This document shows positions 30,982 to 62,532 of a stretch of DNA of 64,000 nt, piece after piece. The position numbers and the translations under genes are program-made. Below the pieces are notes generated by a model. The model did no database searches. It saw nothing but the letters and a program-made list of their open reading frames with translations, and was not told the DNA's origin. Each line of letters opens with the position of its first letter. Within the stretch, counting starts at the first letter, position 1. Origin of the DNA: Candidatus Aenigmatarchaeota archaeon (lineage in GTDB: Archaea > Aenigmatarchaeota > Aenigmatarchaeia > Aenigmatarchaeales > JACQIB01); the NCBI GenBank assembly GCA_016198755.1, contig JACQIB010000003.1:6767-70766 (forward strand), in the 5' to 3' direction.

Positions 30982-31518
30982 TCATGGCTTGAAGAACTTT
31001 ACCGCATAATATCCAACAGAATCTTTGTAAACAACAGCCCAGAGCATGTTTGCGCGGATATTATGGGCTAATCTGACAGCTCTGCTGAGTTCAGGGAAAG
31101 AGAAAACATAGTTTTCCGGAACAGCAAACACAATCCATTTTGTGTGTTCCCCAGCACTTTTAGGCCCCCTTTTCAGTGGTTTCACACCTTTGTTGTAAAC
31201 CCTGAAGTCACATCCAAACTTAAACCCTGTTCTGGTTGGTAGTTCTTTGTTTCTCAAATCTTTGTAAACAGCATAGCGGAAGCTGAAGCGCGGATCTTTT
31301 TGGTTGCAATACTGGAACATTTCCTCCTTTCCAACCTCTTTTCCTGTCTTATCCACCATAGTTACCTTTCCAATATCCAGTAAATATGCAGCTTCTATTA
31401 ACGCAAGTTCAAGCCTGTCTTCCCTGGGCTTTCCCAGATAAAGCTCTTCAAACAGCTCATTTCCCTTTTCCCTGTCCCATACAACAGCTCTATTTTCTGC
31501 TAAAACAACTTCTATCAT
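30982..31518 (-). CDS. endA: tRNA-splicing endonuclease subunit (EndA paralog 2; Tyr and His present)
   Basis: YKDLRNKELPTRTGFKFGCDFRVYNKG, GEHTKWIVF, RLAHNIRANMLWAVV, aligned by eye to M. jannaschii EndA. Confidence 0.85.
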   Translation of the reverse strand: MIEVVLAENRAVVWDREKGNELFEELYLGKPREDRLELALIEAAYLLDIGKVTMVDKTGKEVGKEEMFQYCNQKDPRFSFRYAVYKDLRNKELPTRTGFKFGCDFRVYNKGVKPLKRGPKSAGEHTKWIVFAVPENYVFSFPELSRAVRLAHNIRANMLWAVVYKDSVGYYAVKFFKP

Positions 31519-31519
31519 T

Positions 31520-32041
31520 TTATCCCACCTTCGGAGATTCTATTATGTAGTAAGTACAGTCAGAGTCATTATCCACAACAGCCCAGAGTGCAACAGATTT
31601 TATATTTTGTGCAAGTTTTATTGCTTTCCCAAGCTGCTCTAAAGCACATGGATAATCTTCTGCTGAAGTAAAAACAATCCATTTCACTGTTTCAGCTTTC
31701 CCAGGTTTTGCACCACGTTCATAAACCCTGAAATCACATCCCTTAAATCCTGTTCTCACTGCTAATCCACGTTCCCTCAGGTCTTTGTATACTGAATAAC
31801 GGGCCATGAAATGCTCGTCCCTTTCAGAACAATAATTCAGAATTTCTTTCAAAGAAAGTTTTTGCTCTCCTATAACTACCTCTAGCTTTCCCCTCTCCAA
31901 AAGAGCTGCTGCTTCTATCTGGTCCAGTTCAAATCCACTTCCAAGCGGATTACCATACCAGCCTGTTTCGTATAGCTCCTTTGCTTCGGGGCCTTCAACA
32001 ACAACTTTGTCATTTTCCAGCTTTCCCGTCAGCATATTCAA
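31520..32041 (-). CDS. endA: tRNA-splicing endonuclease subunit (EndA paralog 1; catalytic His position substituted)
   Basis: YKDLRERGLAVRTGFKGCDFRVYERG, KAETVKWIVF, KLAQNIKSVALWAVV. Separated from the downstream paralog by 1 nt. Confidence 0.8.
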   Translation of the reverse strand: MNMLTGKLENDKVVVEGPEAKELYETGWYGNPLGSGFELDQIEAAALLERGKLEVVIGEQKLSLKEILNYCSERDEHFMARYSVYKDLRERGLAVRTGFKGCDFRVYERGAKPGKAETVKWIVFTSAEDYPCALEQLGKAIKLAQNIKSVALWAVVDNDSDCTYYIIESPKVG

Positions 32042-32121
32042 CAGAATCCTTTCTTCCCAATTCTTTTTAAACCTTCCCTTTCCGAAGCGTGTTTAAATCC
32101 TTTACATTCCAAACTCTGCAT

Positions 32122-32394
32122 ATGAAGATATTTGTTTTATTTACAGCCTTTTCCATTGCTCTGATCTTTACCTTGCCAACAGCTTTTGCTCTCAATTTTG
32201 AAAATAATGGGAAAATTATTCATAAAGAAATACTAAAAGCAAAGCTTTCCAAGTCTGTAAAACCAATTAAAACAATAGCCGAGCCAAAAATAATGGCAAA
32301 AAAGCTTCCGTATTTCTGTTCAGATGATTTTATAGCAGGATACCCAAAAGCTGAACTGTTAAGGAAACACTGTTCTATCTTGGCAAAGAAATAA
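32122..32394 (+). CDS. Small secreted hypothetical protein
   Basis: Signal peptide MKIFVLFTAFSIALIFTLPTAFA. A TATA-like GTGTTTAAATCC is centred about 27 nt upstream of the ATG at 32122. The ORF track starts it at 32089. Confidence 0.4.
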   Translation: MKIFVLFTAFSIALIFTLPTAFALNFENNGKIIHKEILKAKLSKSVKPIKTIAEPKIMAKKLPYFCSDDFIAGYPKAELLRKHCSILAKK

Positions 32395-32926
32395 CTTTGG
32401 AAGCTTTCACTTCACAGTCCCTGCACATTATTTTCTGCTTTTTATCCACGTCCCCAGCAGAAGGAGACGGGCTCATTACGCAGGTAGGTCTAAAGCAATG
32501 TTCCAATCCCAATTGATGGCCTAAAGTATGTACAGCTTCTTTTGTAACCCTTTCTCCAAGAAGGTAAAGGTTTATTCCCTGTCCATAGAATTCTGTTCTC
32601 AATCTTGCCATGGAAATAATGGAAACAGAATAAACAGGATCTTCAACAGCAAATGCAAAGTTCATTTTGTCTGCATACAAGTCCGCATCTGTTATAAAAA
32701 GTGCAGGCAAATCTCTGTCTATATACTGTGCAACTTGGTTCTTGCAAAGCAAATCAATCATTTTATCTGCATCATGCTGCCTTCTCAGAGCATTATAAGA
32801 TTCCTTAGGAACAACAAGATTTTCCATAACTCTGGTTTTAATTCCCAGTGTATTTTCTATTCCCCCGGAAACTTCTTTCAAAAGCTTTTCTGAAACAGTC
32901 CCTACAGGTATTATCCTAACAAGCAT
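32375..32926 (-). CDS. amzA: Archaemetzincin-like metalloprotease with HTLGH in place of HExxH
   Basis: EAVHTLGHQLGLEHC...CVM...CRDC matches the archaemetzincin zinc/Cys pattern. The ORF-track N-terminal extension to 33010 runs over tRNA-Phe. The start at 32926 (MLVRIIPVG) has a TATA-like box upstream. Confidence 0.75.
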   Translation of the reverse strand: MLVRIIPVGTVSEKLLKEVSGGIENTLGIKTRVMENLVVPKESYNALRRQHDADKMIDLLCKNQVAQYIDRDLPALFITDADLYADKMNFAFAVEDPVYSVSIISMARLRTEFYGQGINLYLLGERVTKEAVHTLGHQLGLEHCFRPTCVMSPSPSAGDVDKKQKIMCRDCEVKASKVISLPR

Positions 32927-32961
32927 GGATAAAATTAGTTTCGCAAGCTTAAAAGTTAGAG

Positions 32962-33090
32962 TGGTGGGGCAGGCGTGATTTGAACACGCGACATTCCGCA
33001 CTGCACACAATAGGTATGCAGTTCCACGGTCTTCAGCCGTTTAAGCCTCTTTAATTAAGAGTGTGCTCTCCCGAGCTGAGCTACTGCCCC
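32962..33090 (-). tRNA. tRNA-Phe(GAA), two non-canonical introns, CCA encoded
   Basis: Acceptor GGGGCAG/CTGCCCC, D arm GCTC-AGCTCGGGA-GAGC, T arm GCGTG-TTCAAAT-CACGC. Anticodon loop CTGAAGA (GAA at 33034-33032) in stem CACGG/CCGTG, which forms only after removing a 22-nt intron (33041-33062, position 27/28, BHB helix GAGC:GCTT). A 30-nt intron (32994-33023, position 44/45, BHB helix CCGT:GCGG) restores a 5-nt variable loop. Lengths sum exactly: 77+22+30=129. Confidence 0.75.
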
Positions 33091-61796: not shown

Positions 61797-61966
61797 TGGT
61801 GGGCCGGGCAGGATTTTCAGCCCTTTTGGGGTTTGCAAAGACCTTTTCGGGAAAAGGGATTTGCTTTGAACCTGCGACTCCCACCTTTCCGTCCGCTTCG
61901 TGTGCTGAACCCTCAACACTGTTGCGGATGTAAGGGTGATGTCATACCGGACTAGACCACCGGCCC
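61797..61966 (-). tRNA. tRNA-Val(TAC), two introns (37/38 and T-loop 59/60), CCA encoded
   Basis: Exons are identical to tRNA-Val(GAC) except positions 34 and 38. Loop CTTACA[42 nt, 61887-61928]A, with TAC at 61932-61930. T arm GCAGG-TTCAAA[51 nt, 61814-61864]T-CCTGC. 77+42+51=170. Confidence 0.8.
61814..61864 (-). repeat. T-loop intron family A, copy in tRNA-Val(TAC)
   Basis: GCAAATCCCTTTTCCCGAAAAGGTCTTTGCAAACCCCAAAAGGGCTGAAAA. Confidence 0.85.
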
Positions 61967-62388: not shown

Positions 62389-62532
62389 TGGTGCGCCCGA
62401 CGGGATTTTCAGCCCCTCAAAGGGAGAGGGTGGAGGGAGATACGTAGTTTCTCCTCCTTTGAACCCGTGTCGTAAGCTTTTTCTGCGGAAATCGCATGGG
62501 AAGCTCAAATCCTACCACTAGACTACGGACGC
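62389..62532 (-). tRNA. tRNA-Gly(CCC), two introns (37/38 and T-loop 59/60), CCA encoded
   Basis: Acceptor GCGTCCG/CGGGCGC. Anticodon stem TGAGC/GCTTA, loop TTCCCA[18 nt, 62479-62496]A, with CCC at 62500-62498. T arm ACGGG-TTCAAA[52 nt, 62406-62457]T-CCCGT. 74+18+52=144. Confidence 0.8.
62406..62457 (-). repeat. T-loop intron family B, copy in tRNA-Gly(CCC)
   Basis: Its reverse complement is identical to 49114-49165. Confidence 0.9.

Follow-up and report, generated by a model that had tools for sequence, protein, structure and literature searches.

Two adjacent genes for the tRNA splicing endonuclease EndA lie in the window, a 64,000-nucleotide stretch of contig JACQIB010000003.1 from a Candidatus Aenigmatarchaeota archaeon. 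Judged by their sequences, both products are EndA homologues with a catalytic centre that departs from the definition of the family: the canonical lysine of the Tyr-His-Lys triad is in neither of them. We consider it quite probable that the two proteins form an (alpha-beta)2 enzyme which arose from a duplicated Lys-less ancestor, with a catalytic downstream subunit, a structural upstream subunit and a rewired active site through which the enzyme is likely active. The gene pair is otherwise an ordinary catalytic plus structural EndA pair of the known two-subunit design. The catalytic centre without Lys is a variant form within a known enzyme; it is common to large DPANN lineages and apparently undescribed in the literature searched.

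An EndA gene pair without the catalytic lysine

The two genes are located head to tail on the minus strand:

30982..31518, minus strand: downstream EndA paralogue, putative catalytic alpha subunit, 178 amino acids (Pfam matches)
31520..32041, minus strand: upstream EndA paralogue, putative structural beta-like subunit (matches to PF02778 and PF01974)

A single base separates the coding regions (G-TAA-A-ATG), and GGTGG stands just 5' of the downstream start. The upstream open reading frame (ORF) encodes 173 amino acids from a TTG and 171 from an ATG two codons in, at 32035. This ATG is probably the true start; it is the gene callers' choice and its product is identical to cluster P0121. Both proteins exceeded the Pfam cut-offs, with 66.4 and 79.3 bits for PF01974 (tRNA_int_endo; cut-off 27) and 55.5 and 51.9 bits for PF02778 (tRNA_int_endo_N; cut-off 21), as well as the cut-off of TIGR00324 endA (upstream 92.3, downstream 94.7, cut-off 59.6 bits). 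Against the two-unit NCBIfam model PRK09300.1-3 (350 positions), each protein matched one half with ~141 bits: positions 2-163 (N-terminal) in the case of the upstream protein, and positions 182-347 (C-terminal, catalytic) in that of the downstream one. An AlphaFold2 model of the downstream protein (predicted local distance difference test score 90.6, predicted template modelling score 0.87) was used for a Foldseek search. The top match was M. jannaschii EndA (1a79_A; template modelling (TM) score 0.83, E 1.6e-16) and the top 17 PDB matches were all archaeal EndAs, indicating an EndA alpha-subunit fold for the downstream protein, to which this comparison applies.

Triad sites were assigned by phmmer alignments to M. 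jannaschii EndA (1a79), in which chain position + 8 gives the residue number. There, Tyr115 is the Y of FRLY, His125 the H of KEHS and Lys156 the first K of SVRKK. Around these sites the alignment of the downstream protein is free of gaps, and Y108 corresponds to Tyr115, H125 to His125 and A156 to Lys156, and its motif RLAHNIRAN stands against RVAHSVRKK of M. jannaschii. The sites are encoded as follows:

31195..31197, minus strand: Tyr108 codon TAC, downstream EndA, equivalent to M. jannaschii Tyr115
31144..31146, minus strand: His125 codon CAC, downstream EndA, equivalent to M. jannaschii His125 and followed by Thr126
31051..31053, minus strand: Ala156 codon GCA, downstream EndA, at the canonical Lys site, inside RLAHNIRAN (31048-31074)
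31679..31696, minus strand: AETVKW segment, upstream EndA, His site gone, 6 residues shorter than in the downstream EndA
31592..31606, minus strand: NIKSV, upstream EndA, Ser at the canonical Lys site by alignment

The upstream protein keeps the Tyr (Y107), and its segment KAETVKW is without the His. Its orthologues have N, S, K, A, E, T or V at the His site and A, T or S at the Lys site; in none of the 49 upstream-type sequences, nor in the 24-row upstream clade described below, does a His stand at this site, which is taken by a different residue or a gap. Neither paralogue carries the helix-borne catalytic Lys that belongs to the definition of the family. A sequence-only reading of this DNA had described two full-length EndA genes 1 nt apart, none with a complete triad, with Tyr and His kept and Lys156 changed to Ala in the downstream protein, and Tyr kept and His lost in the upstream one; our profile and structure-database alignments confirmed each of these points. 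The 'shifted Lys' which it noted in the upstream protein is no relocated catalytic Lys: it proved to be the ordinary position -1 to the Lys site, where 83% of canonical catalytic domains have Arg or Lys and 47 of 49 upstream-type orthologues have Arg.

The alignments indicate that Ala at the Lys site is neither an error nor a chance event, because AHNIRA[N/x]ML is nearly invariant in 176 homologue clusters from independent assemblies. Its codon, GCA, is two substitutions from any Lys codon. Y108, H125 and T126 are invariant in alignment A1 (58 aligned homologues), and no variation is seen at Tyr108, His125, Arg149 or Lys100 in ~170 clusters that share 50-70% identity. Arg149, in RLAH, is the first bulge-recognition Arg and is present and invariant. 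Lys100, the lysine of GFKFG, aligns with ARMAN-2 K228, a phosphate contact (PMC12397907).

The catalytic helix Lys is K156 in M. jannaschii, K287 in A. fulgidus and K282 in ARMAN-2. Tyr, His and Lys are said to be conserved in all four EndA types (PMC6379350, PMC5829648) and likewise in the eukaryotic catalytic subunits Sen2 and Sen34 (PMC6379350). Cleavage was abolished by K282A in ARMAN-2 EndA (PMC3488258) and reportedly by the Lys-to-Ala change in A. fulgidus EndA (PMC12397907). The EndA-RNA structures described in the literature consulted have all three triad residues assigned to one catalytic unit (PMC12397907).

Proposed division of labour between the two subunits

Four further elements, all on the minus strand, distinguish the two proteins:

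31159..31176, minus strand: L3 loop LKRGPK (residues 115-120), downstream EndA, basic insertion between Tyr and His, from the spacing
31559..31573, minus strand: acidic L10 loop DNDSD (residues 157-161), upstream EndA, net acidic charge
31012..31029, minus strand: degenerate L10 loop YKDSVG, downstream EndA, charge ~0, variable in orthologues
30985..30996, minus strand: C-terminal FFKP, downstream EndA, group consensus with an aromatic aligned to the second bulge-binding position

The upstream type is without the His and the 6-residue L3 and has an acidic L10; in the downstream type the pattern is reversed. Single-gene relatives retain His, L3 and acidic L10 together. In EndA the L10 loop inserts in a basic pocket of the partner subunit, leading to tetramer assembly (PMC3239211, PMC6379350). 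On average the L10 region has a net acidic charge of +3.0 in the upstream type (n=24), where the loop is nearly invariant (VVDNDxDVTYY), 0.05 in the downstream type (n=21) and +2.9 in the single-gene relatives. A non-acidic L10 is likewise found in P0317, representative of the N. equitans-type catalytic subunit. The second bulge-binding residue is Arg in alpha4 and alpha'2 enzymes and Trp in (alpha-beta)2 and epsilon2 enzymes (PMC3488258, PMC6379350). At this site, as placed by alignment only, the downstream protein has Phe, versus Trp in N. equitans and Arg in the single-gene relatives.

The spacing between Tyr and His is 17 in the downstream protein and 6-11 in canonical EndAs. Within L3, G118 and K120 are invariant in A1 and K116 is at least 90% conserved. 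The homologues of L3 are the N. equitans-specific loop K93-R97 and I243-E248 of ARMAN-2. L3 has already been described (PMC3239211, PMC3488258, PMC5829648), near the triad in N. equitans and ARMAN-2 (PMC3488258, PMC5829648), and is one of three EndA specificity loops, L1 being CSL, L2 ASL and L3 the N. equitans/ARMAN loop (PMC5829648). The specificity loop of the downstream EndA is thus L3; its N-terminal part has no CSL or ASL insertion, residues 6-109 being colinear with residues 6-108 of the loop-less M. jannaschii enzyme.

Two genes, one of them with the catalytic residues, and an acidic L10 present in the structural and lost from the catalytic subunit, are the features of an (alpha-beta)2 enzyme. 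Because Tyr and His are both in the downstream protein, the pair would comprise a catalytic alpha and a structural beta subunit, predicted to form an (alpha-beta)2 heterotetramer. The complementary feature losses support the heteromeric enzyme proposed in the sequence-only reading, and the pair does stand among tRNA genes with non-canonical introns, as it had claimed (see below). That reading had set a whole triad in one paralogue against its own proposal; this is found for Tyr and His, both downstream, but the Lys is in neither protein. With Tyr and His in the same protein, the suggested composite site from both paralogues is unsupported, and the suggested non-standard residue set survives as a trait of a large DPANN lineage rather than of this locus.

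Origin of the pair by tandem duplication

To collect relatives, the back-translated motifs KFGCDFRV and LAHNIRAxM were matched to species-representative genomes, giving 240 stretches, of which 227 encode a relative. Among the best 80 related loci, 17 are tandem, with an upstream-type gene just before the downstream-type gene, and 63 have a single gene within 2 kb. We built a maximum-likelihood tree of 149 units with SH-aLRT support. The upstream-type sequences (24 rows) group together as one clade (100). It branches inside the clade of Lys-less EndAs with L3, where two starred sets, of 56 rows (96) and 74 rows (95), enclose it, and its neighbours are single-gene enzymes whose Tyr-His spacing is 17 residues, as in the downstream protein. 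A separate clade (95) holds the downstream-type sequences from tandem loci. From this nested position of the upstream clade, the tree places the duplication after the loss of Lys, indicating a tandem duplication inside one Aenigmatarchaeota order from a single-gene enzyme already without Lys; hence the small residue at the Lys site in both copies. The gene pair is a new, independent case of the known (alpha-beta)2 design.

Other EndA arrangements were observed in the phylum. Fused two-unit Lys-less EndAs (loci L138, L139 and L148; open frames of 372-413 aa), which occur in a different family from that of the window pair, have Tyr and His in both units, Lys in neither and full L3 in the second unit only; in the tree they represent a separate duplication and fusion within the phylum. 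There are also ~400-aa epsilon2-like proteins with the canonical Lys (AHSVKKTFI), sometimes beside a Lys-less single-unit gene. Six Aenigmatarchaeota genomes (G003, G012, G029, G031, G035 and G054) have such an epsilon2-like Lys EndA and a separate Lys-less single-unit EndA (L124, L126, L128, L130, L132 and L134 with L123, L125, L127, L129, L131 and L133).

Lys-less EndAs as a lineage trait

We searched 61 Aenigmatarchaeota genomes, 89-98% complete. Exactly one EndA-domain match was found in 36 of them, always Y-H-[A/T] with L3 and without an upstream-type partner. The motifs AHNIRA[x]ML and KP[LI]K[RK]GPK..EHTKW are nearly invariant in the 176 homologue clusters. All 188 tabulated His-bearing Lys-less proteins have A, S or T at the Lys site, and 186 have Arg155. 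In a set of representatives clustered at 50%, the short-spacing Y-H-K type accounts for 133 catalytic-type domains, and those with Y-H-[A/S] all have a spacing of 15-17.

A second Lys-less group comprises 56 clusters with Y-H-T and without L3 (YPRGKKPGEEHTQW ... [AS]GN[LI]xT), some labelled Diapherotrites. In the class reached through genome G061 (31 genomes, small at 0.7-1.3 Mb), an EndA match was found in 28 genomes and exactly one match in 26. As their main match, 27 genomes have Y-H-T and one has Y-H-I, and L3 is absent from every one of these. The best trees put the L3-less Y-H-T group beside the L3 clade. A common origin for all Lys-less EndAs was not rejected by an approximately unbiased (AU) test (p 0.64), and the constrained tree was 7.9 log-likelihood units better than the free quick tree. 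No description of a natural Lys-less EndA was found in the literature searched, the scope of which left out the supplementary alignments of Kaneta et al. 2018.

It is conceivable, although we lean somewhat against it, that the Lys-less EndAs are one old DPANN-wide subfamily, comprising those of Aenigmatarchaeota, the proteins labelled Nanohaloarchaeota or Diapherotrites and the G061 class, in which RNA would be cut by Tyr and His together with neutral hydrogen-bond donors. The donors in view are the Thr that follows the His and the Asn located one turn of the helix ahead of the site left empty. On this reading, nature could dispense with the third member of the 'universal' splicing-endonuclease triad, and the alpha4, (alpha-beta)2 and fused two-unit architectures would each have re-arisen independently inside the Lys-less subfamily.

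The L3-less Y-H-T genes (P0303 and P0341; loci L149-L153) share a conserved neighbourhood. A gene of 125-136 aa with no Pfam match is located directly upstream of the EndA gene, and a TrmB-family regulator gene lies further downstream, past a large gene on the opposite strand.

Interrupted tRNA genes and the need for splicing

A candidate substrate is encoded ~0.9 kb upstream of the EndA pair, on the same strand:

32962..33090, minus strand: tRNA-Phe(GAA) with two non-canonical introns (direct reading; Rfam tRNA 39.7 bits)

The introns are 22 nt at 27/28 and 30 nt at 44/45, and the anticodon stem and variable loop form only once both are removed. In the minimum-free-energy fold of the precursor (z = -4.7), both introns show a central helix of 4 bp, with 3-nt bulges where the cuts are predicted, and the outer helices are weak or absent. 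EndA enzymes cut bulge-helix-bulge (BHB) RNA and leave 2',3'-cyclic phosphate and 5'-OH ends; this transcript, whose introns are of the BHB type, is likely a substrate of the EndA pair. In the first intron, the 3' strand of the D stem forms part of the central helix.

The genome of the window (890 kb, 89% complete) gave 19 Rfam tRNA matches, and ARAGORN called 18 tRNA genes, 12 of them with introns; many tRNA genes are probably too interrupted to be detected. Because the tRNA genes are so heavily interrupted, splicing is essential. A Pfam search for a third EndA in this genome found none, with only two EndA-like ORFs, and hmmsearch over all six frames, run without filters on a custom EndA profile, detected only the same two genes, the next match having E = 0.5. 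The genome also encodes the ligase RtcB. Together, the conservation of the Lys-less pair and its status as sole copy suggest that it is most likely active.

Several minor features of these genes were noted. RtcB matches in two pieces (profile 1-50 and 48-426) ~1.4 kb apart in one 1010-aa frame outside the window (G000:C5:42797-45628, plus strand), which looks like an intein-type insertion in the tRNA ligase. Two long tRNA matches, at window positions 61800-61966 (167 nt) and 62392-62532 (141 nt), were detected in the window scan and not in the genome scan. Two putative tRNA genes with long introns come from ARAGORN: a tRNA-Glu with a 250-nt intron (C5:162498-162841, minus strand) and a tRNA-Trp with one of 2196 nt (G000:C5:146378-148666, minus strand), the latter of which may be a false join or may contain an ORF.

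Candidate replacements of the lysine and alternative explanations

In the mechanism we propose, Tyr108 of the downstream alpha subunit would act as general base and His125 as general acid, Arg149 and the C-terminal aromatic would hold the bulged base, and the basic L3 loop would be present in the same subunit. The upstream beta subunit would be non-catalytic, with its acidic L10 joining two alpha-beta dimers. A single-gene alpha4-type ancestor would have duplicated in tandem, the copies then splitting its functions. In place of Lys, the transition state would be held by rewired residues around the scissile phosphate, candidates being Thr126, beside the His, and Asn153 and Ile154, one turn before site 156, with Arg155 and the L3 lysines as possible extra positive charge.

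These candidates come from a column-by-column comparison of canonical EndAs with both Lys-less groups:

Position 126: Ser/Ala in canonical EndAs, Thr in Lys-less EndAs
Position 153: Ser/Gly in canonical EndAs, Asn in Lys-less EndAs
Position 154: Val/Thr in canonical EndAs, Ile/Leu in Lys-less EndAs
Position 103: Ala in canonical EndAs, Cys/Phe in Lys-less EndAs

Thr126 is found in 94% and 68% of the two Lys-less groups. No gained basic column common to both groups was detected in this comparison. In RNA complexes the residue after the His, which is S252 in ARMAN-2 EndA and S258 in that of A. fulgidus, shares with Lys the contact to the scissile phosphate (PMC12397907). The helix of site 156 also carries residues 153 and 154, two to three residues before the site, and from the helix geometry residue 153 would be about one turn before the site. 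A rewired phosphate-binding site is our best reading of these columns, and the groups named are those that may replace Lys. Arg155 was rejected as a general replacement: although 186 of the 188 L3-clade proteins have it, the L3-less group varies here between K, R, H, N and C, and the Arg is also kept in the non-catalytic upstream paralogue.

Three considerations weigh against an active pair with a rewired site. The Lys-to-Ala change kills ARMAN-2 EndA and reportedly A. fulgidus EndA (PMC3488258, PMC12397907). The co-varying positions may reflect one shared ancestry event and not compensation; a single origin of all Lys-less EndAs was not rejected in the AU test. Finally, with the genome 89% complete, a third EndA could, strictly speaking, lie on the missing DNA.

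DPANN archaea, as symbionts, rely on hosts for many functions, and the Lys-less proteins might be dead or very weak RNA-binding scaffolds, with another nuclease or a host enzyme cutting the introns. The abolished cleavage in two characterised EndAs (PMC3488258, PMC12397907) fits such a view, but we hold it to be highly improbable in the face of the four residues invariant across ~170 clusters, the presence of exactly one EndA-family match in 36 and 26 genomes of two lineages, the retention of RtcB and tRNA genes so interrupted that splicing is essential. Moreover, where catalysis was truly lost, in the upstream paralogue, the His was replaced in the same time frame. The two proteins could also belong to no common enzyme, the downstream one being a homotetramer and the upstream one having drifted (as an RNA chaperone or regulator) or decaying, and close relatives of the same order (G041 and G046) do live with a single gene. 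This is very unlikely: the downstream subunit lost the acidic L10 that every single-gene relative keeps and the upstream subunit has it, a complementary pattern which matches the N. equitans-type representative P0317. The conserved upstream clade comprises 24 sequences, whose frames are intact, and the upstream gene is directly 5' of, or overlaps, the downstream gene in most tandem loci (17 in total). The same coupling, here with 1-nt spacing, and a triad complete in neither protein would suit a composite site, in which the upstream subunit gives a Lys in trans (e.g. K148 of NIKSV) to the downstream Tyr and His. The upstream protein of the window indeed has a Lys at position -1, but Arg or Lys is ordinary there and Arg is the rule in its orthologues. 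The protein descends from a Lys-less ancestor, most of the phylum uses the same Lys-less enzyme without an upstream-type partner (36 of 61 genomes), and the EndA-RNA structures described in the literature consulted have the triad in one catalytic unit (PMC12397907), all of which makes a composite site extremely unlikely.

A different relocation of the charge, within the same subunit, would have an L3 basic residue (K116, R117 or K120) take over the transition-state role of the lost helix Lys, L3 having made the loss tolerable. L3 lies between Tyr and His and, from the structures of N. equitans and ARMAN-2 EndA, has been described as close to the triad (PMC3488258). It is in every Lys-less protein of the Aenigmatarchaeota/Nanohaloarchaeota clade, with G118 and K120 invariant and K116 at least 90% conserved, and the non-catalytic upstream paralogue deleted it along with the His; enzymes with both L3 and Lys exist (P0317, P0322 and P0351). 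Against this, the second Lys-less group is without L3 in its 56 Y-H-T clusters and provides the main EndA in 27 of the 31 genomes of its class, the best trees put it beside the L3 clade, and a single Lys-less origin is not rejected (p-AU 0.64), so that L3 may postdate the loss of Lys. The ARMAN-2 L3 mutants K241A and K244A are still active (PMC3488258), and no basic column was gained in common by both groups. We therefore regard the takeover by L3 as unlikely; the L3 lysines were downgraded as direct replacements after the L3-less Y-H-T group and the AU result.

Comparison with characterised EndAs

The (alpha-beta)2 EndA of N. equitans (3IEY) is, like the window pair, a two-gene heteromer of catalytic alpha and structural beta subunits. 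It is the best PDB sequence match of the downstream subunit (E 8.8e-29), and its alpha subunit likewise has a basic Tyr-His insertion (IPKKGKRSEREH vs KPLKRGPKSAGEH) and a non-acidic L10. Unlike the downstream EndA, N. equitans alpha keeps the catalytic Lys (AHSTRKKML), and its beta (3iey_B, chain of 153 aa) is shorter than the upstream EndA. The two pairs are independent duplications, the upstream clade being nested in Aenigmatarchaeota single-gene enzymes. The M. kandleri (Methanopyrus kandleri) (alpha-beta)2 EndA (5X89) also has two full-length, two-domain subunits (PMC5829648), and the first half of its fusion construct ('EndA-like protein') is the best PDB match of the upstream subunit. 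It differs from the window pair in its canonical Y295/H303/K334, the absence of a specific loop and its constrained specificity, and it has a separate origin, related to TACK/Asgard enzymes (PMC5829648).

The single-gene ancestors of the pair are of the M. jannaschii alpha4 type (1A79), an enzyme that resembles the downstream EndA in length and two-domain fold (TM 0.83) and is colinear with it apart from L3. Unlike the window pair it is a homotetramer with Tyr115/His125/Lys156, no L3 and an acidic L10 in every subunit. The A. fulgidus alpha'2 EndA (2GJW) and the PRK09300.1-3 enzymes share the order of the window genes, structural unit first and catalytic unit second, but are one fused polypeptide with Lys287, whereas the window units are separate genes. 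The ARMAN-2 epsilon2 EndA (4FZ2, 9W2K) has an insertion at the L3 position (I243-E248), as has the downstream EndA, and its type is also found in some Aenigmatarchaeota as ~400-aa proteins (YFPGASP...WIHSKH / AHSVKKTFI). In contrast to the window pair it is a three-unit enzyme with an ASL loop (K161) and the canonical K282, and the Pfam and six-frame searches found no such gene in the window's genome.

Lys-to-Ala serves as the dead-enzyme control for EndA. Whole DPANN lineages with a Lys-less EndA alone and heavily interrupted tRNAs imply that Lys is non-essential in the right active-site context, or that a substitute exists. The question is directly testable with a small enzyme whose natural substrate would be encoded 0.9 kb away. 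In addition, the locus represents a fresh, independent alpha4 to (alpha-beta)2 transition with single-gene relatives persisting in the same order, and is a clean system for how subunits divide functions.

Neighbouring reading frames

A plus-strand ORF of 54 aa (31386..31550) crosses the junction of the EndA genes and was treated as spurious. A TTTAAAAA box precedes the upstream EndA gene; the distance from its 3' end is ~24 nt to the TTG at 32041 and 30 nt to the ATG at 32035. Because it overlaps the tRNA-Phe gene, the listed ORF 32375..33010 must have its true start further downstream. The 333-bp gap between the upstream EndA gene and an archaemetzincin-like gene contains a 101-aa ORF (32089-32394, plus strand), which has a signal-peptide-like N-terminus and lies on the strand opposite to the upstream EndA.

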